NCBI GenBank assembly: GCA_037574385.1
Contig: GCA_037574385.1_4529.1
Source of the DNA: a phage
Direction: 5' to 3' (one strand)
Length of the DNA stretch: 64,000 nucleotides
A program made the position numbers and the translations under genes. Below the pieces are notes generated by a model. The model had not been told where the DNA came from. It searched no databases and saw only the letters and a list, made by a program, of their open reading frames with translations. This document shows positions 125-12,015 of the stretch, piece by piece; within the stretch, counting starts at the first letter, position 1; each line of letters starts with the position of its first letter.

Positions 125-1006
125 TTATCCAGCCACAAAACTCTCTTCAACACACTGAATAAAAGTGTGCATCGCCGGGCTAACCGCTTTTCCAGCATGG
201 TGTGCGCACATGGCCGTAATGGTCTGCGACTGTTCGCCAAAAGGCAATTCAATTAATTCTCCGCTCTCAAGCTCTTTTTCCACCGCAAAGCGGGGCAAGT
301 AACTGACACCGATATTCGCCGCGACACAACGTTTGATACTTTCAATGCTTAACAGCTCAATGGTGTTTTCCACCGTGATCCGCCGCTGACGCAGCGTGCT
401 CTCAAATATCTGCCGGAAGACACATTGCGGTTCGTTGATAATAAAGCTACAGGCGTTATGTCTTCCCGGCTCAGTAAAATCGACATCTGCAATTTGCGGT
501 GAAGCCACCAGCACCAGCGATTGTTCACCCAACTCTCGTCGGTTCAGGGCATCATCATTCCCTACGCGATAAAAGACGCCGACATCGGCCTCATCATTCA
601 GTAGCGCATCACGGATCACGTAACAGTTCAGCGACTGCAACGATAAACGCACTTTTGGTGCGCGTTGCCGAAAACGCTGCAACACCTGCGGCATTCGGTA
701 AGAGAGCAACGTTTCGCCCGAAACAACGCGTAGTTCCCCGTCCGGATCTGACTCCTTTTTGGCAGCCTCACGAAGCGTATCCATCACTCGGGTAAGTTCA
801 TAAATGTGCGGCAGCAACTTTTTTCCTTCGCGGGTAAGGCACATCCGTCGGCCAATTTTCTCAAATAACTGGACTGAAAACTCCTGCTCAAGCTGCTGAA
901 TATGAAAAGTCACCGTCGATTGTGTACAGCACAATTTTTGCGAAGCTCGCAAAAAGGAACCCTCTTCCACCACGGTTTTAAGCGTAATAAAACGGCGCAG
1001 ATCCAT
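125..1006 (-). CDS. yfiE: LysR-family transcriptional regulator (start taken at MDLRRFITL, internal to the ORF-track ORF)
   Basis: N-terminal HTH (LRRFITLKTVVEEGSFLRASQKLCCTQSTV) plus LysR substrate-binding-like C-terminus; divergent from eamB as in E. coli; ~50% GC. Confidence 0.75.
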   Translation of the reverse strand: MDLRRFITLKTVVEEGSFLRASQKLCCTQSTVTFHIQQLEQEFSVQLFEKIGRRMCLTREGKKLLPHIYELTRVMDTLREAAKKESDPDGELRVVSGETLLSYRMPQVLQRFRQRAPKVRLSLQSLNCYVIRDALLNDEADVGVFYRVGNDDALNRRELGEQSLVLVASPQIADVDFTEPGRHNACSFIINEPQCVFRQIFESTLRQRRITVENTIELLSIESIKRCVAANIGVSYLPRFAVEKELESGELIELPFGEQSQTITAMCAHHAGKAVSPAMHTFIQCVEESFVAG

Positions 1007-1108: not shown

Positions 1109-1696
1109 GTGACACCGACCCTTTTAAGTGCTTTTTGGACTTACACCCTGATTACCGCTATGACGCCAGGACCGAACAATATTCTCGCCCTTAGCTCTGC
1201 TACGTCGCATGGATTTCGTCAAAGTACCCGCGTGCTGGCAGGGATGAGTCTGGGATTTTTGATTGTGATGTTACTGTGTGCGGGCATTTCATTTTCACTG
1301 GCAGTGATTGACCCGGCAGCGGTACACCTTTTGAGTTGGGCGGGGGCGGCATATATTGTCTGGCTGGCGTGGAAAATCGCCACCAGCCCAACAAAGGAAG
1401 ACGGACTTCAGGCAAAACCAATCAGCTTTTGGGCCAGCTTTGCTTTGCAGTTTGTGAACGTCAAAATCATTTTGTACGGTGTTACGGCACTGTCGACGTT
1501 TGTTCTGCCGCAAACACAGGCGCTAAGCTGGGTAGTTGGCGTCAGCGTTTTGCTGGCGATGATTGGGACGTTTGGCAATGTGTGCTGGGCGCTGGCGGGG
1601 CATCTGTTTCAGCGATTGTTTCGCCAGTATGGTCGCCAGTTAAATATCGTGCTTGCCCTGTTGCTGGTCTATTGCGCGGTACGCATTTTCTATTAA
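1109..1696 (+). CDS. eamB: LysE/RhtB-family cysteine/O-acetylserine exporter EamB (YfiK), GTG start
   Basis: 195 aa multi-TM protein; sequence recognised as E. coli EamB; RBS GAGGAGA upstream. Confidence 0.85.
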   Translation: MTPTLLSAFWTYTLITAMTPGPNNILALSSATSHGFRQSTRVLAGMSLGFLIVMLLCAGISFSLAVIDPAAVHLLSWAGAAYIVWLAWKIATSPTKEDGLQAKPISFWASFALQFVNVKIILYGVTALSTFVLPQTQALSWVVGVSVLLAMIGTFGNVCWALAGHLFQRLFRQYGRQLNIVLALLLVYCAVRIFY

Positions 1697-1704
1697 CGAA
1701 AAAA

Positions 1705-1730
1705 AGCGGAAGAGGTCGCCCTCTTCCGCT
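1705..1730. terminator. Bidirectional rho-independent terminator between convergent eamB and grcA
   Basis: Perfect hairpin agcggaagagg-tcgc-cctcttccgct flanked by A-run and T-rich sequence. Confidence 0.6.
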
Positions 1731-1751
1731 TAGTAACTTGCTACTTAAGCC

Positions 1752-2114
1752 TTACAGGCTTTCAGTAAAGGTACGAGCGATAACGTCGCGCTGCTGTTCC
1801 GGAGTCAGAGAGTTAAAGCGAACTGCATAACCGGATACACGGATGGTCAGCTGCGGATATTTTTCCGGATGCTTAACTGCATCTTCCAGAGTTTCGCGAC
1901 GCAGAACGTTAACGTTCAGGTGTTGACCACCTTCAATTTTAACTTTAGGTTGATGTTCAATTTCAATTTCACGGGCATTCAAACCGTAGAAAATTTCTGG
2001 GTCTACAATAGCGTCTTCTTTAAAAGCCTTAGAGACAATAATCCGGGCTTGAGTACCGTCTTCAAAATAAATAGTGCCTTTATGTGCACCTTCAAGAATT
2101 TGATATGCTTTCAT
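1752..2114 (-). CDS. grcA: Autonomous glycyl-radical cofactor GrcA/YfiD family; chimeric: C-terminal half host-type, N-terminal half phage-type (T4 Y06I-like)
   Basis: C-terminus [59 protein letters not shown] matches E. coli GrcA with glycyl-radical motif RVSGY; N-terminal 58 aa diverged and encoded by AT-rich DNA. Confidence 0.8.
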
Positions 2115-2120
2115 ATAACC

Positions 2121-2429
2121 TCAATTAGAAAATAAATTTATCCAAGTTTTTTCTTTAATCAAAAATGGGTCGGAATTAAACGCCATTAAACTTTGAGTGA
2201 TTAATCCCTTAAATGGTCCATCAATAAATTCCATTTTGAAATGTGGAATACTAGTCATCAGTCGTGCATTAGGAGCAGTACAAAGAACCTGCTGCCCTGC
2301 GAACGGTCCTTTAGTCAAACGATATCGTTTAGGTTTAAAATGGTAAATCTCGTAATTTTCTACAAGGGCCCTTTTATTGCATACTGGGCTGTTATAACAA
2401 TACTCAAAAACTTCAATAGTGGTCATCAT
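2121..2429 (-). CDS. Hypothetical phage protein (102 aa; start at MMTTIEV, ATGA overlap with upstream stop)
   Basis: ORF in early-gene orientation; start overlaps stop of 2426..2965 (translational coupling). Confidence 0.45.
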   Translation of the reverse strand: MMTTIEVFEYCYNSPVCNKRALVENYEIYHFKPKRYRLTKGPFAGQQVLCTAPNARLMTSIPHFKMEFIDGPFKGLITQSLMAFNSDPFLIKEKTWINLFSN

Positions 2430-2965
2430 TGCATTCCAATCACAAAAAATTGAGGACGAGCAATACCGCCGTTGCAATATTTGCTTTTACAGCAGTGTTG
2501 GACTGTTTTAATATGGACATTGTAAATCTTATCCATATCAGGAGCTTTAATAGGCTCGTCAATTATATACAGAATACGAGAAAGCGTTAATCCACGGAAT
2601 TTAGAACCTTCATTGCCAATAAAACTACGAACAGAATCAGTAAATAAACGGAATCGAATATCGTCGCTAGAATAACGAGAAAATTCTTTTTTAATGTTGC
2701 CAACAGAAATTTTAGCATAAGCTGAAGTATTAGAAAGAACAATAACTGTTCCACCATCATACAGCCAATTAACAGCAAAATTAGTTACTGCAGTTGATTT
2801 ACCTGATTGTCTGCCGCCGTCTAAACGAAGTGTACAGTACTGCTTGAGTACATCTTCAAATGGTGGGACATAACCGTTCTTACAAATTTCTTCTACTCTA
2901 GCATCAGAATGGTGTGTAAAAGCATTCATCAGGGATAGATAAGGTCCAGTTAAAAACGTTCTCAT
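2426..2965 (-). CDS. P-loop NTPase of unknown function
   Basis: Walker A GGRQSGKST and Walker B-like ILYIIDEP. Confidence 0.55.
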   Translation of the reverse strand: MRTFLTGPYLSLMNAFTHHSDARVEEICKNGYVPPFEDVLKQYCTLRLDGGRQSGKSTAVTNFAVNWLYDGGTVIVLSNTSAYAKISVGNIKKEFSRYSSDDIRFRLFTDSVRSFIGNEGSKFRGLTLSRILYIIDEPIKAPDMDKIYNVHIKTVQHCCKSKYCNGGIARPQFFVIGMQ

Positions 2966-3138
2966 TTAGTTTCTCTTAAGGTTGGGGCCATTCCATGGCA
3001 CATGTTAGGTCCTTCGACTCACTATGTAAACCCATTACCGCACTTGGGCTCGACCTTATTACAGGTTGGAAAAGGTACATCACTCAGAGGACTCGACGTT
3101 CATGAGGAGAGGTTGCGTTTCCCTTTATTAGGCAAGAA

Positions 3139-3468
3139 TTATACTCTAGGCTTTTGAGCTTGTTTGGTATTGGATTCCCACGCTGCTTTGGTAATTTTGT
3201 TAGCGGCATAGCCAAAGGCATTAGATAGAACACCTTTAGAGTTGAATACATCCAATCCAATAAGTACACCGGCTGCGTTAAATTTAGGAGCAAAGTACGC
3301 ATTAGTTTTAGAAAGAGCTTTTTTCAATTCAGGGTCTTGAACCAAGCCATCAAAAACGCCTTTACTATTTACTTTATATGTTACTTTGGGATTTTTACCT
3401 TCTTCGATAGCAGCTTTCTGTTCCGCAGATAATGTAACTTCAGTGATAAACTCTTGATATGTTTTCAT
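3139..3468 (-). CDS. Capsid-targeted internal protein candidate (CTS-bearing), 109 aa
   Basis: N-terminus MKTYQEFITE matches the T4 internal-protein capsid-targeting sequence (MKTYQEFIAE). Confidence 0.6.
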   Translation of the reverse strand: MKTYQEFITEVTLSAEQKAAIEEGKNPKVTYKVNSKGVFDGLVQDPELKKALSKTNAYFAPKFNAAGVLIGLDVFNSKGVLSNAFGYAANKITKAAWESNTKQAQKPRV

Positions 3469-3509
3469 ATGTTTCCTTTAAATGTAAATAGGCCTAAGTA
3501 TAGGCCTTA

Positions 3510-4088
3510 TTAATTACCACGGGCTGCATTAGCAACGGCGTAAGCGTACTGAACATTAGCGTCTTTAAACGTACCTTTAGAGGTATCTATTTCTGCCTTA
3601 AAGCCGCCTTTAGCCATAACATCGGCAAATTCTTTACGGAAAGCCATTGCGTCAAGACCTTTCCATGATGATTTATGCTTGGCAAATTCAAGACCAGCGT
3701 AGTTGACAGCTTTAGCCAATTTATTATCAATGACCCATTTACCTGCTTTAGGCACAAACTTCGGGCCTTTTTGTTTAGAGAACAGTTTTAAATTCCAGCG
3801 ACGAAGGTCACTGTCGGCTTTAACAAAAGCTGCGTCTAAGTTACTAGCAACAACATCTTCAATATGAGCAAATTTAAGACCATCAACTTCAATATTTAGA
3901 TCGTTACGCCAGCGAAGTCCTTCCCAAGCGAAGGCTTTAAAGTCGGAAGCCTTTGTAGCTAAGTACCGTTCAATAGGAGCAGTTTTAGGGTCAAAGCCGT
4001 TTCCGCCACGATAATTCCACTCGTCCTTATTAATGCCTTGGACTTTTCCTGCAAAGGCCTCGGCGATAAATTCTTTATATGTTTTCAT
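3510..4088 (-). CDS. Capsid-targeted internal protein candidate, 192 aa (size of T4 IPIII); start at internal MKTYKEFIAEA
   Basis: CTS MKTYKEFIAE preceded by RBS AAGGAAAC; ORF-track ORF extends 14 codons upstream. Confidence 0.6.
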   Translation of the reverse strand: MKTYKEFIAEAFAGKVQGINKDEWNYRGGNGFDPKTAPIERYLATKASDFKAFAWEGLRWRNDLNIEVDGLKFAHIEDVVASNLDAAFVKADSDLRRWNLKLFSKQKGPKFVPKAGKWVIDNKLAKAVNYAGLEFAKHKSSWKGLDAMAFRKEFADVMAKGGFKAEIDTSKGTFKDANVQYAYAVANAARGN

Positions 4089-4153
4089 TTTTGTTTCCTT
4101 GTTTGTTTTGATAGAGTAATTATACCCCATATTAATACTTAAGCGTAAACAAT

Positions 4154-4414
4154 TTAAGCTTTACCGCCAGAAATAATTCCGAAGTTGTTAAAATCGTATC
4201 CAATATCGTCAGCATCTACTTTAGGGCTTGCTACAACATAAGCAATTTCACGACGTTTTGCATAGGTGTTGATTTCTTTACCATCGCCACCTAAGAAAGA
4301 ATACCCATTACGTTTTAATGAGCCAAAGTCTTCGGCATCACCAACGAAAGCTTTAACTTTAAATTTGGGGTCTTTGGCATCTGCTTCAGTGATAAATTCT
4401 TGATACATTTTCAT
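4154..4414 (-). CDS. Capsid-targeted internal protein candidate, 86 aa; start at internal MKMYQEFITEA
   Basis: CTS-like N-terminus MKMYQEFITE with RBS AAGGAAAAA; immediately downstream of denV. Confidence 0.6.
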   Translation of the reverse strand: MKMYQEFITEADAKDPKFKVKAFVGDAEDFGSLKRNGYSFLGGDGKEINTYAKRREIAYVVASPKVDADDIGYDFNNFGIISGGKA

Positions 4415-4421
4415 TTTTTCC

Positions 4422-4835
4422 TTAGTAAATTGATTTACCATAGTATTTGTACCAAGTCGGACGTTGAGCAATTTTTTCATCTAAGCGTGCTTGACTTATC
4501 GCAATGGACGCTTCGGACGGGACATAATTATTACGAAATTCGGCAGGGATGTCGGAAATATCCTGGACTGTCGTGTCCTTTATTTTGAAACCACGTTTCA
4601 AACATTCAGCGATTAGCTCGATTTGACGTAAACGTAAAAATTCGAGTTTGTCATAAAAGAATGTTACGTGACCTGTGCCTAAGATAAATGTTGGAGAGAT
4701 TTTAAAATCTTTTACACGTTTACCGTTTTGGACATGTTTACGGACTGCACCAAATACGCGTGGTAATTCACGATACTCAGCCATAAGATGTTGGTCGGTC
4801 AGTTCAGAAACAAGTGTTAAATTGATACGAGTCAT
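4422..4835 (-). CDS. denV: Endonuclease V (pyrimidine-dimer DNA glycosylase/AP lyase), start at MTRINLTLV
   Basis: Near-identical over full length to T4 DenV as recalled ([12 protein letters not shown]...[10 protein letters not shown]); RBS GGAGGAAATT. Confidence 0.9.
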
Positions 4836-4863
4836 AATTTCCTCCAAGTAGTTGATAGATGTA

Positions 4864-4893
4864 TAGTATCAAAACCCTTGGAGGAAGTAAACA
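4864..4893 (-). promoter_or_regulatory. T4-type early promoter (-35 GTTTAC, N18, extended -10 TGnTACTAT) upstream of denV
   Basis: Minus-strand GTTTAC...TGATACTAT in the 58-bp gap upstream of denV. Confidence 0.5.
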
Positions 4894-5175
4894 CTATTTT
4901 TCTGAAGCGCCTGAAATATATTTTTCAAGACGTTGTTTCATCAGCGAGCCGTTCTTAGCGATTTCTTCCGGTTTATCGCACATACGCAACAAGGCTTCAA
5001 GCTTAACGATATCGCTGGTACGTTCAAATTTGCGAGTATCTATCTTACTAGCAAGTTCAGAAATACGTGCTAATAGACTTTCAGCTTCAACCAAAGCTGC
5101 ACCTAGCTTAGTTGCAAATGTGTCAGTAGCTTCGTTAAGAATAGATTCTGATAAAAATTCACTATATGTTTTCAT
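4894..5175 (-). CDS. Capsid-targeted internal protein candidate, 93 aa; start at [10 protein letters not shown]
   Basis: CTS-like N-terminus; its ATG overlaps the TGA stop of gene e (ATGA coupling); sits at the T4 ipII/ipIII position. Confidence 0.6.
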
Positions 5176-5660
5176 ATATACGCTTTCCAAGTTCCTGTTT
5201 TAAATGTTGAGATTACGCGTTTCGCACGATTAGGTGTCTGACGATACCATTTAGATTGGGCTAGATTTACTGCCGCTTCATCCCAACGTTTCTGTTGAAG
5301 CATACGAAGAGAATTAGTAAAACCAGCAACGCCTGCTACACCCATTTGGAAGACCATATTGACTAATGCACATCGACGAACCGCGTCTAAAGAATCATAC
5401 ACTGGTTTAAGTTTAGCATTACCCAAGATTCCACGAACGGCTTTATCAACATCTTCATTAAATAGCTTTTCAGCCTCATCAAGGGTAATTGTACCGTTGC
5501 ATTTACGACCGATCATTCTATCAAGTTCAGCTTTAGCTACGGCTAAAGACGGGTTCTTTGTTACCAAATGGCCTATGCCAATAGTCCAAAAGCCTTCGGT
5601 GTCTTTGTATAAAGACAGTCTAAGACCTTCGTCATTACGAAGCATTTCAAATATATTCAT
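5172..5660 (-). CDS. e: Phage lysozyme (endolysin, T4 gene e), start at MNIFEMLR
   Basis: Collinear high identity with T4 lysozyme as recalled ([27 protein letters not shown]...[31 protein letters not shown]). Confidence 0.95.
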
Positions 5661-5694
5661 AATACCTCCCACGTTTATAGGAGGTATTTATTAC

Positions 5695-6153
5695 TTATAG
5701 GATGGTAGTGAGCACCTTATATAATGATTTGCCCATCACATATTCCCATTGAGAAGGTTTAATTAAAGCGAATGCATCAAATTCAGGAATCTGTCGTCCG
5801 TCCGGGAATGTATGATAGGAATTACAAACACTGTTTCTGAATTGCTCGTGCTCTACAGGGATGGTATATTGGAATAGATGAATATTCTTATTGTCTGAGT
5901 AATGATGTTCACCTAGGTCTTTCAGGAAGGCAGGGTCATATTGTGTAAACCCAGTTTCTTCTTCGCATTCACGAATAGCGGCTTCAATAGGAGATTCGCC
6001 AGGTTCGACGCGGCCTTTAGGAATATCCCACCGATGAGCTAAAGAACCTTTAGGACGAGAACCAGTTACACGGCCCATGAATAATTCTTTATCTTCGGTA
6101 AGGAAAATAATACCGGCTGATAGTTCTTTCACTTTATTTTTCTTACTCATCAT
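5695..6153 (-). CDS. nudE: Nudix hydrolase (T4 NudE/e.1-like)
   Basis: Nudix box GRVEPGESPIEAAIRECEEETG; directly downstream of e as in T4. Confidence 0.85.
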   Translation of the reverse strand: MMSKKNKVKELSAGIIFLTEDKELFMGRVTGSRPKGSLAHRWDIPKGRVEPGESPIEAAIRECEEETGFTQYDPAFLKDLGEHHYSDNKNIHLFQYTIPVEHEQFRNSVCNSYHTFPDGRQIPEFDAFALIKPSQWEYVMGKSLYKVLTTIL

Positions 6154-6379
6154 CTCGGTCCCATGATTTGGCCATTAATTCGGACATAAATTCTTCAATG
6201 CGTGTTTCTTTAGATGGACTTTCACTATTAGAGACCGCAAGTTTGTAATCTGCAATAGGACGGAACAAATCAAGGTCCATATTAAGATCGTCTTTGATTT
6301 TTTCTTCTGACACATCTTTATCATATGTGTACAGATAACTATCACACGATTCTGATTTAATGTAAATTGCTATACTCAT
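6143..6379 (-). CDS. Hypothetical small acidic protein (start at second ATG, SD AGGAA)
   Basis: ORF with RBS; ATG overlaps upstream stop. Confidence 0.4.
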   Translation of the reverse strand: MSIAIYIKSESCDSYLYTYDKDVSEEKIKDDLNMDLDLFRPIADYKLAVSNSESPSKETRIEEFMSELMAKSWDRDDE

Positions 6380-6867
6380 CTCAAATTCCTGCATTCGGTA
6401 ATAAAACGTTCAACTTCATTATTCTTGGCCTTTATCTTGTCTTTACGTTCCTGTAAACTACTTTTAACAAGATTAATAATGATGCCTATAGTACCTCCAC
6501 CAATAATACCACCAATAATACTTACGATAGTAGATGCTAATAATATAGCGATAATATCTGGTATGGCAAAGGCACTTACTTTAGTACTAAAAAACCATAC
6601 CGACGGTACAAATATAATCCATCCTGTTATCCATTGGCACTTATTGAAAAACTTTTCAAGCTCAGCTTGAGTTGTTCGTATTACTTCATCGATAGGTTGA
6701 TATCCATTAATGTATCTGTTCACGATAATACCTGCTGGTTGGTCGATTTTAAATTCTTGACAAATACGTTTCACTAAGTAGGATGGACATCCTGTCCAAT
6801 CTACTGAATAGTACGAAATACCTTCATTACCGTCGTCTATATTAGACCAATATGTTTTGTTAATCAT
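6376..6867 (-). CDS. Hypothetical membrane protein (163 aa)
   Basis: Long hydrophobic, Gly/Ile-rich segment WITGWIIFVPSVWFF...IVSIIGGIIGGGTIGIIINLV. Confidence 0.5.
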   Translation of the reverse strand: MINKTYWSNIDDGNEGISYYSVDWTGCPSYLVKRICQEFKIDQPAGIIVNRYINGYQPIDEVIRTTQAELEKFFNKCQWITGWIIFVPSVWFFSTKVSAFAIPDIIAILLASTIVSIIGGIIGGGTIGIIINLVKSSLQERKDKIKAKNNEVERFITECRNLR

Positions 6868-7553
6868 TACCAGCCTTCCATAGGGAATTCCAGATAAACT
6901 TGAGCATTGACACGAATTTCATTGGTAATCTTTTTAACTCGGTCTGTATTACGAGATACACGTCCGAACCAACGCCATCCATTACTAATTGCACGAGAAC
7001 CAGTGTGCCATGTTTGCCAATCAAACTGAAGAAGAGTACGGTCTGGAGCTTCCCATTTCTCTAGTTCACCTTTTTCAATTTTTTCGAGGACTTCTTTGTG
7101 CCACTGGCGATAGATAAGTTCGCCATCAGGAATCTGACTGAACTCTGCAGTTCCTGTTGCAAAATGAGTAGGACACACGTCAGCGTTAACAAGGCCAAGA
7201 ATATGTTCAGACAAATAGCGAGGATTGTCATAATCAGGTTGTCCTGCAGTAATAAAATGTTGACCAACCGGAATATCCGGACGTGGTACATCGTCATGGT
7301 GATAACCTGGGATAGCAGGGTACCAACCAGGCATCAGCATGTGGACTCGTGAATCAAATACTACATCCGAGCCTTTCCAATCGTCAGGGAGATTTTGGAT
7401 AAAGCTACGAGTAATTGGACCGCCGTTATCCCAAGCAAAACTCAAATCACAGTTAAAGAACATTTGTTCATTTTTGATTTGGTCATTTTGTACGTTATGA
7501 GCAAAACCACCTACTGCACGAGCTTGACTATTAAACACTTTAGAACTATTCAT
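6867..7553 (-). CDS. Hypothetical protein (228 aa), no recognisable motif
   Basis: Long ORF in hyperplastic region; His/Asp-rich patches (HHDD, PTHFATG). Confidence 0.5.
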   Translation of the reverse strand: MNSSKVFNSQARAVGGFAHNVQNDQIKNEQMFFNCDLSFAWDNGGPITRSFIQNLPDDWKGSDVVFDSRVHMLMPGWYPAIPGYHHDDVPRPDIPVGQHFITAGQPDYDNPRYLSEHILGLVNADVCPTHFATGTAEFSQIPDGELIYRQWHKEVLEKIEKGELEKWEAPDRTLLQFDWQTWHTGSRAISNGWRWFGRVSRNTDRVKKITNEIRVNAQVYLEFPMEGW

Positions 7554-7554
7554 A

Positions 7555-7860
7555 TTATTTTCCTCGGCATTCTTTAATGAAATTTTCTAGATTGGTAGAT
7601 TCAATAGCTTTTTTACGAGCTTCTGCATGTTCTTCTTCAGACAATTTACATTTATAATTAACCCAGACGTTATGGTCAAAACTAGTCGTGGCATATAATA
7701 ACAAAGCCCCGACGAATAATAAAAATGGTGATAAGAATACAAAACCAGGAACACCATCCATATTGTAAGCCTTTTGTAATACTGCAACAGAAAGAGCTGC
7801 ATAAAAAGGCGATGCAAATATTGTAAAAAGACCAATTCGGTTGGTTTCGCCTAATTTCAT
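7555..7860 (-). CDS. Hypothetical small membrane protein (101 aa)
   Basis: Two predicted TM helices; RBS GAGGAGAAT; follows an early promoter. Confidence 0.5.
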   Translation of the reverse strand: MKLGETNRIGLFTIFASPFYAALSVAVLQKAYNMDGVPGFVFLSPFLLFVGALLLYATTSFDHNVWVNYKCKLSEEEHAEARKKAIESTNLENFIKECRGK

Positions 7861-7888
7861 AATATTCTCCTCATGTTTTAATAGGACT

Positions 7889-7918
7889 ACTATAACATAG
7901 TCCTATAATTGTGTAAAC
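7889..7918 (-). promoter_or_regulatory. T4-type early promoter embedded in a 9-bp inverted repeat (PeSL-like cassette)
   Basis: Minus strand GTTTAC-N18-TGTTATAGT; -10 lies within palindrome ATAGGACTA..TAGTCCTAT; near-identical copies at ~9184 and ~15870. Confidence 0.55.
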
Positions 7919-7930
7919 GGTTTTGTGAAA

Positions 7931-8887
7931 TTATTTGAAAGGTTTTACCATATGGAAATTTTGTTTGAAACGTTTGACGTAATCATCATGTCCTAAGCTT
8001 TGGTACATACTTACAACTTTGCTGTAGTTTTCCCAAGCATACTCACGGAACCAACCAGAGGTGATGCTTGTACAGACTTTTTCCAATGCCATCATAAAAC
8101 TGGCTTCAGGGTTAATTTTAAAGTCATTAGGAATCTGAGAACGTTCTAATGCTAGTACACATGATTCTTCGTATACACCGGCCAATTTGACCATTTCTGG
8201 TAATGATTCGAACTTCTCGCGTGAGGTCATGACTTCAGAACCATCTTTCATGTAAAATGTATAAGCCGGACGGTCTGTTAGTGCAATGGCTTCGTGAATA
8301 GTATCATGGTCATACGTATAGATGTCATCTTTAAAGAATGCGCTTTTAGAAGTGTCAAGAACTGGGTGAGCATAGTTCAAGGTTTCTTTCTGGCGTTTCA
8401 GCATAATTTCAGTAAGTTCATCGTTCAGTGTAACACCTTTACCACGAAGATACTGAATATGGTTCATAGTCTTTAAAAAGAATGGATTATTTTTCTTGAA
8501 ACGATGAGACATCTTAATTGCAAGACACATCTCAGGAGTTGCCCAGTAAAACCCGTTCAAACGGTCTTTAGTCAAATTTTTCTTGGCGTATTTTAAAAGG
8601 TCATAAGAAGACGTGAAATCTTCAGGAGTGAGTTCACCGACTAATTCACGGACATTAGTGATTGCCGGAACAATATACGCTTCAAAATGAGTTTCGCGTC
8701 CATTATGGAAGCATTTGAAAACTTGGACATCAGGGTTATCTTGGTGGACATATACACCCATCATTTGATTTTTGAATGTATTCCAAGAACCTTGGTCCGC
8801 AATAAAGTCCCAATCGCTATTTTTGATAGCGCTAGAATCAATAAGGCCATGATAGTGAAGTGCACGAGAACCAATAACTAACATCAT
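7931..8887 (-). CDS. Hypothetical protein (318 aa)
   Basis: Long ORF, no motif recognised. Confidence 0.5.
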   Translation of the reverse strand: MMLVIGSRALHYHGLIDSSAIKNSDWDFIADQGSWNTFKNQMMGVYVHQDNPDVQVFKCFHNGRETHFEAYIVPAITNVRELVGELTPEDFTSSYDLLKYAKKNLTKDRLNGFYWATPEMCLAIKMSHRFKKNNPFFLKTMNHIQYLRGKGVTLNDELTEIMLKRQKETLNYAHPVLDTSKSAFFKDDIYTYDHDTIHEAIALTDRPAYTFYMKDGSEVMTSREKFESLPEMVKLAGVYEESCVLALERSQIPNDFKINPEASFMMALEKVCTSITSGWFREYAWENYSKVVSMYQSLGHDDYVKRFKQNFHMVKPFK

Positions 8888-8915
8888 AATATTTTCCTCT
8901 GATTAATTCATTAAC

Positions 8916-9167
8916 TTAAATTTCACGACATGCGATATCATATTCATCCCAGAGGTCATCATGTGAAGCCTCTACCAATGGAACGATTGTACCGTTTATG
9001 TCTTCATTATAAGGACAAATTGTACAGTGCGCATCTTCGAATCGGATGCCTTTGTGTTCAGATTTTTTATAACGTATATCGAATATCTTTGCAAACTTTT
9101 CACGACTAATAGTTTTAGCAACTACTTCGGTTCCGATACTTTCGTAATAAATCATTGTGGACTCCAT
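8916..9167 (-). CDS. Hypothetical small protein (83 aa)
   Basis: ORF directly downstream of an early promoter. Confidence 0.45.
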   Translation of the reverse strand: MESTMIYYESIGTEVVAKTISREKFAKIFDIRYKKSEHKGIRFEDAHCTICPYNEDINGTIVPLVEASHDDLWDEYDIACREI

Positions 9168-9183
9168 TTAATTTGATAGGACT

Positions 9184-9213
9184 ACTATAACATAGCCCTA
9201 TCTTGTTGTAAAC
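9184..9213 (-). promoter_or_regulatory. T4-type early promoter within palindromic cassette
   Basis: GTTTAC-N18-TATAGT on minus strand; palindrome gataggactactataacatagccctatc. Confidence 0.55.
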
Positions 9214-9217
9214 TGTT

Positions 9218-9415
9218 TTAGCAAGAATAACTAGATGATACCCAGCCTTGAACAGTAATACTATTATTGGATAATGAGATCGCGTCCTGGAGATTCAGAC
9301 CTGCGTTATCTTCAATCCACAATGTAACTTCTTCGCGTTCTTCTGTTGCAATTTGGAACAGGTTTTCCAGAGCAGCTACTGCCGTACGTACAGCACAATC
9401 TAATTCACGAGACAT
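9218..9415 (-). CDS. Small protein, member 1 of a tandem paralog triplet (65 aa)
   Basis: C-terminus ...TVQGWVSSSYSC shared with the next two ORFs. Confidence 0.5.
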   Translation of the reverse strand: MSRELDCAVRTAVAALENLFQIATEEREEVTLWIEDNAGLNLQDAISLSNNSITVQGWVSSSYSC

Positions 9416-9424
9416 ATGATTTCC

Positions 9425-9697
9425 TTAACAAGTGTGAGAAGATGCAACCCAACCACCATCTTCAAGGCTCAGGTTGTAGTCGTATTGGTAAACGTCAGCC
9501 CATTCAGCCTGGCCGTTTTTTGTACAACGTTCAAGATCGGCTTTAAGATGTCCTGGTGAATGATAGGTTCCACCCATGCCATAAGCTGGATACAAGTCGA
9601 ATGTTGTGTTTTGTTTATTAGCAATTTCTTTGGCAGCCTCAATAGCTGCATAGATTTTTGCTACGGCTTCAGCCAGTTCGGTTTGTTCTTTAGACAT
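9425..9697 (-). CDS. Small protein, member 2 of tandem paralog triplet (90 aa)
   Basis: C-terminus ...DGGWVASSHTC; N-terminus MSKEQTELAEA. Confidence 0.5.
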   Translation of the reverse strand: MSKEQTELAEAVAKIYAAIEAAKEIANKQNTTFDLYPAYGMGGTYHSPGHLKADLERCTKNGQAEWADVYQYDYNLSLEDGGWVASSHTC

Positions 9698-9706
9698 AAT
9701 GATTCC

Positions 9707-10012
9707 TTAGCACAACGCAGAAGACGAAACCCAAGCACCTTCAGTAATAACGTAACCATTACCTTCACGCTTAACGTCGCCACCATTATTTTCAATTTCA
9801 TCTTTCATCCACTGGGATACGATTTCACCCTTAGGATAATAAGTACGACCGCTACCATAATCACCTACAGAAAATGATACGGCGTATTGGTCTGCGATCT
9901 TTGTTGCTTCTTCTTCGATACGTTCAGCTTGATTCAGAAGTTTATAAATTGCATCTGAAGCGGATTTGGCATCATTAAACTCTGGTACTTTAATTTCAAT
10001 AATCTTACTCAT
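9707..10012 (-). CDS. Small protein, member 3 of tandem paralog triplet (101 aa)
   Basis: C-terminus ...EGAWVSSSALC; N-terminus MSKIIEIKVPE. Confidence 0.5.
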   Translation of the reverse strand: MSKIIEIKVPEFNDAKSASDAIYKLLNQAERIEEEATKIADQYAVSFSVGDYGSGRTYYPKGEIVSQWMKDEIENNGGDVKREGNGYVITEGAWVSSSALC

Positions 10013-10071
10013 TTTCTACATTCCTTAATAAAGTTTTCGATTGTTTCATTTTCACGTCTAGCTAGGAGTTC

Positions 10072-10101
10072 ATTATAACTAATCATTTGAGAAGCGTAAA
10101 C
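10072..10101 (-). promoter_or_regulatory. T4-type early promoter (GTTTAC-N18-TATAAT) upstream of the paralog triplet
   Basis: Consensus -35 GTTTAC and perfect -10 TATAAT on minus strand in the 10013-10110 gap. Confidence 0.55.
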
Positions 10102-10110
10102 AGCATAAAT

Positions 10111-10503
10111 TCAGTTCAGGCTTTTGCATCTTATTTCCTTAACGAATTCCATAGCTTCTTCATATTCATACTTTTTAACAGCTTCATCATACTGAGCTTG
10201 GGCTTTTGCGCACTGAACTTTCCATTCTCTTAATCGGGCTCTGTGATGACGGCCTTGGTGCCAATATCCTACCCAATTAATAGGCATTAATAAAAACGGT
10301 ACAATAAGTGGTGCGACGAACATTAATGAAAACGCTGCATCAGACGATATAACTTTATTGGAATCTAAAATAGCTCCTATAATCATAAAGATTAAAAATG
10401 CTAAAGCTAAAATAGGACCAAATAGTACTTCATTTGGGATTAATTTACGCTTGTATTCATACGCCCAGGGCTTACTTGGCATGTATAGGGTTGGCTTTGA
10501 CAT
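10111..10503 (-). CDS. Hypothetical membrane protein (start uncertain; ORF-track ORF extends to 10533)
   Basis: Two hydrophobic helices (ILALAFLIFMIIGAIL, FSLMFVAPLIVPFLLMPI). Confidence 0.45.
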   Translation of the reverse strand: MSKPTLYMPSKPWAYEYKRKLIPNEVLFGPILALAFLIFMIIGAILDSNKVISSDAAFSLMFVAPLIVPFLLMPINWVGYWHQGRHHRARLREWKVQCAKAQAQYDEAVKKYEYEEAMEFVKEIRCKSLN

Positions 10504-11095
10504 ATTCTCTACATTCCATAATAAATTGCTCAAGGATTAAATTGTTAGTGAAATTAGGACTAACAACCATGGTTTCATAAAGAGCATCAATAGCACTTAA
10601 AGCATCAACTCTTTTAAGCAAAGGCTTGCCTTCATACATAGTTTCAGAATCGACGATTAACGTAAAGTAATATTTTTTGTTATCGACTAGAACTTCAGTA
10701 TCGATATAAAACATGTTAGACCTTAAGAGCTTATCTCTAAAACCATAATAATCTTCAGAGCGTTCGCTGATATATTCCCATTCGGTGTTTAAACAACAAA
10801 CAGACCACGTAGGAGCAACGAAATCAGTGAATCTAATATCATGGTCTGCAACTAGTTTAGCAATAGCTCCGATATCATGAATCATAATACCTGGGGCTAA
10901 TAAAGATTTTCTGCTATGGCTAGCCGTTTTCTCAGTTGTCTCATAAGAAGACGACCAGTACCATTTACGTCCAGTTGCAACATATCGTAATGAATCAACT
11001 AAAGACGTAGGTGGATTTACCTTATCTCGGAACTCTTCGAACATTGAGTCAATATCATTATTTTGGTTTCGCATGTTAACTCCTTTATTATCCAA
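10472..11095 (-). CDS. Hypothetical protein (207 aa)
   Basis: ORF with RBS AAGGAG; preceded by terminator hairpin. Confidence 0.5.
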   Translation of the reverse strand: MDNKGVNMRNQNNDIDSMFEEFRDKVNPPTSLVDSLRYVATGRKWYWSSSYETTEKTASHSRKSLLAPGIMIHDIGAIAKLVADHDIRFTDFVAPTWSVCCLNTEWEYISERSEDYYGFRDKLLRSNMFYIDTEVLVDNKKYYFTLIVDSETMYEGKPLLKRVDALSAIDALYETMVVSPNFTNNLILEQFIMECREYVKANPIHAK

Positions 11096-11097
11096 AA

Positions 11098-11115
11098 GGA
11101 GGACCGGAGTCCTCC
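11098..11115 (-). terminator. Intrinsic terminator-like hairpin (GGAGGAC-UCCG-GUCCUCC + U-run)
   Basis: Perfect 7-bp stem followed by UUUU on the minus-strand transcript, just after stop of 11124..11732. Confidence 0.5.
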
Positions 11116-11123
11116 GTATTATT

Positions 11124-11732
11124 TTATTTCAAAGAGTTAATATATTCTTGTACATCAGCAGAAGTGGTTTCAACACCGGCTGGAGCGCCATTGAATGTTT
11201 CAACGCGAGTCAGAGTGTCTTCGATATCAACCTTAGTCAGTGCAGCAATTTCAATTACATCATCAGCCGTAGAGATACCAAGAGCATTGGCTGCTCGAGT
11301 TTCGCGGATGTATTCAAGTTTGATTGCCAGGTTCTGACGAGCATCGTCAAGTTCAACCACCTTACGAGCAATTTCAATTCGCATAGCGGCATACCCGTCA
11401 GCTTTTGTATTAAGTTGTTCGGCGGTTCGACGATACAGAAGTCCAAGCTTAGCATGCATGGTAACATCTTGTCCTTCAGCCAGGAGCTTACGAATTTCAC
11501 GTTCCTTAGAAGCGGCTTGCTTGTTCTTTTCATTAACAAGTTCGCGAATACGTTTTTCTTCATTAATAGATTTAATAGAAGCCGTTTTTAGTTCTTTGAT
11601 TTGGGTAATCAACTTATCTGCGGCTGCGTTATACTGTTCTTCGACAGTCAGATTTTTAGCCATAGCAGTACCCAGTTTAGTGCGAATGAATTCAACAAGT
11701 TTCTTCAGTGTGTTCATATTATTACCTTTCAA
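11124..11732 (-). CDS. Coiled-coil protein, possibly PspA/IM30-like (202 aa)
   Basis: Highly charged heptad-rich sequence ([43 protein letters not shown]); fold assignment is a guess. Confidence 0.45.
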
Positions 11733-11787
11733 TTGGTGGTTTATTATCCAACGAGAGCATTATACTCTGCTCTCAAGAGTTTGTAAA

Positions 11788-12015
11788 TTATTTTTTAATC
11801 AAATTGACATAAAACTTGGCGTCTTCTGGGTGCATGCCTTCGCAATATTCTTCAACCATGAACTTCTTAACAGCTTCATAAGGACCACTCAGATTAAGCT
11901 CAGTTGTCCAGAACTTGGAATCTTGGACTGAATCGATACGAACTTCAGGGTGTCGGTTGCGAATAACTTCTTCGGTGTATTCATAATCAACGACATCAAT
12001 ACTAACTTTAGCCAT
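11788..12015 (-). CDS. Hypothetical small protein (75 aa)
   Basis: ORF with RBS GAGGAGAAA preceded by the promoter/5'UTR module also found at ~48620. Confidence 0.45.
   Translation of the reverse strand: MAKVSIDVVDYEYTEEVIRNRHPEVRIDSVQDSKFWTTELNLSGPYEAVKKFMVEEYCEGMHPEDAKFYVNLIKK

Follow-up and report, generated by a model that had tools for sequence, protein, structure and literature searches.

Host DNA at the end of an RB69-like phage contig: a probable assembly misjoin through a 175-bp repeat common to Escherichia coli grcA and T-even vs.6

A 64,000-nucleotide stretch of a phage assembly (GCA_037574385.1, contig GCA_037574385.1_4529.1; 'the window' hereafter, meaning this whole stretch) begins with Escherichia coli chromosomal DNA and continues as the genome of an RB69-like Mosigvirus. 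The join is most probably an assembly misjoin through a natural 175-bp repeat, and the open reading frame that spans it is an ordinary native phage vs.6 rather than a new chimera.

The two sides differ in composition, GC running at ~0.48–0.54 over positions 100–1900 and at 0.32–0.38 to the right of 2000. Positions 1–1936 correspond to E. coli yfiE-eamB-grcA at 99.9–100% identity to thousands of E. coli genomes; strain S1-CAM-02-A is 100% identical over this interval, and many other strains are 99.9% identical. From its outer end, the host arm comprises (i) a REP/BIME-type repeat (1–87), of which an E. coli genome has a median of 36 sites and which also finds scattered matches in unrelated phage records, (ii) yfiE (125–1006, minus strand), a LysR-family regulator named from the RefSeq annotation of the 100% identical strain and matching Pfam HTH_1 and LysR_substrate, (iii) eamB (1109–1696, plus strand), a cysteine/O-acetylserine exporter by RefSeq annotation that matches Pfam LysE, and (iv) an intrinsic terminator hairpin between eamB and grcA (1704–1731, minus strand; a 12-pair stem, then a T run), whose sequence is of host type and was not seen in the phage genomes aligned. 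In the S1-CAM-02-A sequence examined, an IS621 copy (1408–2388 of that sequence) adjoins the REP element where the window starts, just outside its left end, which marks this place as rich in repeats and as one where contigs would naturally break.

On the other side, positions 1745–64000 match RB69-like Mosigviruses (ESh15, ESh27, phiC120, RB69) at 96–98% identity, a range that holds for 1745–4500 against Mosigvirus and Tequatrovirus phages as well. The segment from 1937 to 64000 is 97–98% identical to ESh27, phiC120 and RB69, and its gene order, from vs.6 through denV, e, nudE and two tRNAs to the structural genes, is collinear with that of RB69-like phages. Beside vs.6 lie vs.7 (2121–2429, minus strand; T4 Y06J family), whose protein is identical on 10 genome-length Mosigvirus contigs, and vs.8 (2426–2965, minus strand), assigned by synteny with ESh15, T4 and the ten genome-length Mosigvirus contigs. 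Looking up the exact Vs.6 and Vs.8 sequences of the window returned no record. Between vs.8 and a 109-aa gene there is a gene-free spacer of ~175 bp (2966–3140; 44% GC) that is kept in ten related genomes; as a candidate structured RNA it was rejected, with no Rfam match and a folding z-score of +1.2. A preliminary description, drawn from the letters of the window, had reported the drop in GC from host to phage, the E. coli gene order with a REP element on the left, the T4-like DNA on the right and a single intact 120-aa frame across the composition switch, and all four are borne out.

That frame (1752–2114, minus strand) is the phage gene vs.6, annotated as an autonomous glycyl radical cofactor and orthologous to T4 Y06I; vs.6 is a known conserved ORF of T4-like phages (PMC1524935). 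It is made up of three stretches. The phage-only 5′ half (1937–2114, minus strand; GC 0.35, GC3 0.22) is 97% identical to that of ESh15 and 89% identical to that of T4, and aligning it with the 5′ half of E. coli grcA revealed no nucleotide similarity. A block of 175 bp (1762–1936, minus strand), delimited by alignment and common to E. coli grcA and T-even vs.6, follows it, and it is this repeat that links host to phage. The last three codons and the stop (1752–1761, minus strand) are spelled as in the host (GAA AGC CTG TAA, with diagnostic bases at 1755, 1758 and 1761), whereas Mosigviruses have GAG AGT CTA TAA at the equivalent codons, followed by the start of vs.5.

At the protein level, the window's Vs.6 shares 111 of its 120 residues (92.5%) with T4 Vs.6, and its C-terminal 60 residues are identical to those of E. 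coli GrcA, the RVSGYAV motif included. This motif occupies residues 92–98 of the stand-alone protein (120 aa, in keeping with the ~14 kDa of the family) and places the radical glycine at G95, the equivalent of YfiD G102. Residues 59–101 match Pfam Gly_radical (PF01228) above its gathering score (67.3 bits against a cut-off of 22.2), and the protein aligns from end to end with E. coli YfiD (PDB 6OWR, E = 7e-43). The score against the NCBIfam equivalog TIGR04365 (spare_glycyl) is 159.3 bits, under the trusted cut-off of 170, because the N-terminal half of Vs.6 is of the divergent phage type; by this measure the protein is a phage-type homologue and not a bacterial GrcA equivalog. The two proteins validated by experiment as spare parts for pyruvate formate-lyase cleaved by oxygen are T4 Y06I and YfiD (PMC8683613, which credits the biochemistry to Wagner et al., 2001). 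From its identity to T4 Vs.6, the window's Vs.6 would likewise be expected to serve as a spare part for O2-cleaved pyruvate formate-lyase, the radical being installed by the PFL-activating enzyme.

The grcA-like block is already part of vs.6 in T4 (as Y06I), in RB69 and in ~640 other phage records, at 95–100% identity; searched alone, 1762–1936 was at least 95% identical to 641 phage records. Counted against E. coli grcA, the block has no differences in the window, none in phage Lv5cm, one in ESh15 and two in T4, and across 18 phage copies examined the differences number 0–6, the block always being followed by phage-spelled last codons and vs.5. The order vs.7-vs.6-vs.5-vs.4-regB occurs in all ten genome-length contigs whose Vs.7 is identical to that of the window, and in T4, ESh15 and Lv5cm vs.6 likewise runs on into vs.5-vs.4-regB. 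The preliminary description had taken the product for a chimeric cofactor peculiar to this locus, a claim that does not survive: T4, RB69, ESh15, Lv5cm and hundreds of other phages carry the same 3′ sequence and continue into vs.5. A full-length phage homologue with this exact 3′ sequence, named in that description as something that would refute it, was looked for by alignment and by database search, and was found. In Salmonella phage Lv5cm (MZ150757) the 5′ half of vs.6 has undergone a tandem partial duplication (2632–3157), annotated as two 'autonomous glycyl radical cofactor' coding sequences, one full (2632–2994) and one a 61-aa fragment (2972–3157).

What is abnormal in the window lies only to the left of 1762, where an E. 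coli terminator, eamB and yfiE stand in place of phage vs.5. The junction had at first been placed within 1880–1960, and there is indeed a sharp boundary at 1936/1937, just upstream of the codons for [10 protein letters not shown]; this boundary is, however, the one native to the phage gene, and host-only sequence begins at or left of 1761. The intervening 175 bp (1762–1936) are as much host as phage, so that the actual switch point can be placed no more closely than within the block. Normal phages also carry vs.4, two genes downstream of vs.6; in the window the host arm stands in its place. The vs.4 homologue matches the Pfam family Acb2_Tad1_hairpin, an anti-CBASS/anti-Thoeris nucleotide-sponge fold, and is located at 8772–9038 in a contig of GCA_011967385.1 and at 6892–7158 in ten genome-length contigs.

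The block is a true inter-replicon repeat, and one longer than the usual k-mers, because it is identical to E. coli (175 bp, 0 mismatches) and is also present in T4, ESh15, Lv5cm and the 641 phage records; within the window, the host and phage replicons have no other sequence in common. Most probably, an assembler joined two DNA molecules through this exact repeat, which both naturally carry. The first would be the genome of a virulent RB69-like phage, with a vs.6 that natively ends in a grcA-identical stretch, and the second E. coli chromosomal DNA in the same read set, that is, contaminating host DNA. In the assembly graph the phage genome would form a circle connected to the host reads by nothing but the block; at that branch the assembler would open the circle and follow the host path (the 3′ end of grcA, eamB, yfiE) as far as the next host repeat, the REP element. 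If so, no substantial population of physical molecules should carry the join. Of the two alternatives offered earlier, an assembly chimera through the shared sequence is therefore the one we favour; the other, a recombination product between host grcA and its phage homologue, holds only in a historical sense, as an ancestral capture of grcA.

Public assemblies show the graph branching at the block. Logan contigs are built on 31-mers (k = 31; PMC12424806), and one of them, SRR28442125_254, is 100.000% identical to window positions 1907–11769 and stops exactly 30 nt into the block. As 30 nt is k − 1, this is the signature of a host grcA path and a phage path merging in the de Bruijn graph of SRR28442125. 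In two related Logan contigs the sequence breaks off 32 and 44 nt inside the block. Two independent Logan contigs also break at window position 11769, beside a hairpin (GAGAGCA...TGCTCTC, window 11740–11800); no repeat that would explain this break was found within the window.

The join itself is absent from finished genomes. Finished relatives all have vs.6 and then vs.5, yfiE or eamB was not found in deposited phage records, and 1937–64000 had no match in 5,426 complete E. coli genomes. The last of these results bears on a Campbell-style integration of a T4-like genome at E. coli grcA, in which one crossover within the shared block would give exactly the junction seen. We regard such an integration as exceedingly improbable, as none of 1937–64000 is found in the 5,426 E. 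coli genomes and as the phage is collinear with the strictly lytic RB69; the metagenomic contig described below is, moreover, too short for a second host arm, and under integration unique ung-side host DNA should have extended it further. A search for the reciprocal junction in IMG/VR gave no match, a result that is uninformative because the collection has only 3 normal vs.6 copies.

We searched for further examples of the join using a junction pattern in which the block is flanked by bases diagnostic of the host to one side and of the phage to the other. The pattern had no match in IMG/VR and none in GTDB genomes; in metagenomes it had one, contig OCHD01000040.1. Between this contig and the window, identity over the phage part is 94–98%, and the host arms differ at ~9 sites, in yfiE. 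The contig can thus be counted as an independent case, from a different phage and a different E. coli strain. Its 170,927 bp amount to roughly one Mosigvirus genome plus the host arm, which forms the terminal 1.74 kb (169,187–170,927) and ends at the equivalent of window position 21, inside the REP repeat where the window begins; the window itself starts 20 nt further into that repeat. In OCHD01000040.1, then, the host DNA lies at the contig end and breaks off at the next repeat, as on the path proposed above. We found no paper in the literature that mentions OCHD01 or SRR28442125.

The same contig is informative about a phage lineage that stably carries the E. coli piece (the 3′ end of grcA, eamB and yfiE) downstream of vs.6, with one of the two junctions formed by homologous and the other by illegitimate recombination. 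At 170.9 kb, OCHD01000040.1 has room for 1–2 kb beyond the 168–170 kb of a typical Mosigvirus genome. The host arm nevertheless reaches the very end of the contig and never returns to phage sequence, and the two cases, with different phages and different host alleles, both end at the same host repeat. With eamB and yfiE in no deposited phage genome, and with the Logan assembly of an identical phage breaking at the block, we hold a stable insert to be very improbable.

The two contigs need not have switched at the same place. Within its block OCHD01000040.1 carries five phage-type SNPs (1920, 1896, 1887, 1866 and 1800), all of which are also found in ACALWA010000010.1, a normal relative, and its switch therefore lies in the last 38 shared bases, 1762–1799. 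The block of the window has no phage-type SNP, and the change at 1896 is seen in 15 of the 18 phage copies examined (OCHD01000040.1 among them); because of this, the window's own switch point probably lies in 1897–1936. Differing switch points fit either a misjoin or a recombination model.

The recombination model in question is that of a join that is real but rare. Host-chromosome fragments ending in grcA would invade the vs.6 block during infection, recombination-dependent, join-copy replication of the T4 type would turn them into hybrid molecules, and a few chimeric reads would then steer the assembler; template switching during library PCR would yield the same chimeric reads in vitro. T4 recombines with plasmid-borne homologies of similar length, and recombination of this type is very efficient, an identity of 175 bp being enough for phage–host join molecules, so some chimeric reads may genuinely exist. 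The perfect homology over 175 bp is in keeping with this, as are the appearance of the join in two data sets independent of each other and the history of the block, in which host and phage have exchanged the segment at least once. Yet the recurrence, the terminal arm, the end in the REP element and the k − 1 break are all explained by the topology of the graph alone, every finished relative has vs.5 after vs.6, and any hybrid molecules would be a tiny minority and not the phage genome. We thus consider a real but rare join unlikely, and retain the misjoin as our explanation.

Regardless of how the contig arose, vs.6 is itself a mosaic gene, with a phage-type 5′ half and an E. coli grcA-type 3′ half. 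In the 5′ half GC is 0.33–0.37 and GC3 0.18–0.28, with only weak similarity to GrcA at the protein level, whereas the 3′ half has the composition of E. coli (GC ~0.49, GC3 0.37–0.45). The block is 97–100% identical to E. coli but 83–92% identical to grcA of other Enterobacterales, and the 3′ half of vs.6 has the look of an E. coli grcA fragment that a forebear of the T-even phages took up. Among 20 SNP types that separate phage copies of the block from E. coli, 18 are GC→AT and one is AT→GC. This bias implies that the E. coli state is ancestral and that the phage copies are decaying towards phage composition. Within the literature searched, we found no paper describing the nucleotide identity between vs.6 and grcA.

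Synonymous divergence gives some idea of the age of the block. Between Tequatrovirus and Mosigvirus, dS is 0.41 in the 5′ half and 0.11 in the 3′ half, values that rest on ~40–45 synonymous sites and are indicative only; within Mosigvirus the corresponding figures, with the same number of sites and equally indicative only, are 0.06 and 0.10. As dS between the genera is lower in the block than in the 5′ half, the block appears to be younger than the Tequatrovirus/Mosigvirus split, and it may either have spread between phages or have been re-copied from E. coli more than once. A bolder proposal connects this history with the contigs: the chimeras would capture real molecules, T-even phages recombining with the E. 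coli chromosome at the block in ordinary infections. We think this improbable. If true, phage genera would owe the E. coli-like state of their block to continuing exchange, and vs.6 would be an ever-open homology portal, allowing a virulent phage to acquire adjacent host genes (eamB, yfiE).

We also asked whether each phage genus carries the grcA block of its own host, comparing vs.6 of Jiaodavirus, Karamvirus, Pseudotevenvirus, Krischvirus and an unclassified Klebsiella phage with 53 enterobacterial grcA genes, a panel without K. pneumoniae and K. oxytoca proper. As a general rule such host-tracking was rejected, the best identities being only 77–88%; over the block itself, these other Straboviridae genera reached just 76–88% with any host in the comparison. 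In Klebsiella Jiaodavirus, GC3 is 0.58–0.62 in the 3′ block of vs.6 and 0.23–0.25 in the 5′ half, and two phages of this group differ by 4.4% in their 3′ blocks and by 1.1% in their 5′ halves. These values hint at a separate, older host-derived block in Jiaodavirus, the true Klebsiella donors lying outside the panel. Two further records from the grcA searches deserve mention. The sequence NZ_JBQPOM010000029.1 ('Vagococcus sp. WN89Y') bears a grcA with 91% amino acid identity to that of E. coli and is probably mislabelled or contaminated, since this grcA is of the Enterobacteriaceae type. In addition, 'plasmid unnamed4' (275 kb) of Klebsiella sp. WOUb02 also bears grcA.

The practical consequence concerns anyone who assembles T4- or RB69-type coliphages. 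These phages share a 175-bp repeat with their host, and contigs extended through it can come to carry eamB and yfiE as false 'host gene cargo' or to show a false 'integration site' in grcA, and could be misread as transduction, as lysogeny by a virulent phage or as host-gene capture. Phage lysates, metagenomes and phage-contaminated isolates are the assemblies at risk, and two independent cases have been found. Because the repeat is a host-derived half-gene fixed in the phage, every data set that combines a T-even phage with E. coli holds this trap. Mosigvirus DNA also occurs inside four NCBI WGS-style assemblies (GCA_011967385.1, GCA_054137945.1, GCA_033580375.1 and GCA_052336805.1), as three genome-length contigs (169–171 kb) and one of 23 kb; if these are bacterial isolates, as they look, this suggests phage contamination or carriage in the cultures. 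As for vs.6 itself, it is a clean case, and one that can be dated, of host DNA replacing part of a gene in a virulent phage, the biology being real but modest.

Set beside T4 Vs.6/Y06I, the frame in the window has the same length of 120 aa and the same position in the series vs.8-vs.7-vs.6. It departs from T4 in that its last three codons and the sequence downstream are spelled as in E. coli, which leaves the protein sequence unaffected, and in that the E. coli terminator, eamB and yfiE stand where the phage has vs.5. The 3′ half of vs.6 shares with the products of host-gene capture (mosaic and auxiliary metabolic genes) a host composition and an identity to E. coli. Unlike in host-gene capture generally, however, only half a gene was replaced, in frame and inside a pre-existing, divergent phage homologue. 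The window as a whole resembles the repeat-induced chimeric contigs and host-DNA tails known from phage assemblies, in that an exact repeat links two replicons, the join recurs and finished genomes lack it; the foreign arm of OCHD01000040.1 is likewise terminal and ends at the next repeat. It differs from such contigs in its repeat, which is not a mobile element or rRNA but a host-derived half-gene residing in a virulent phage.
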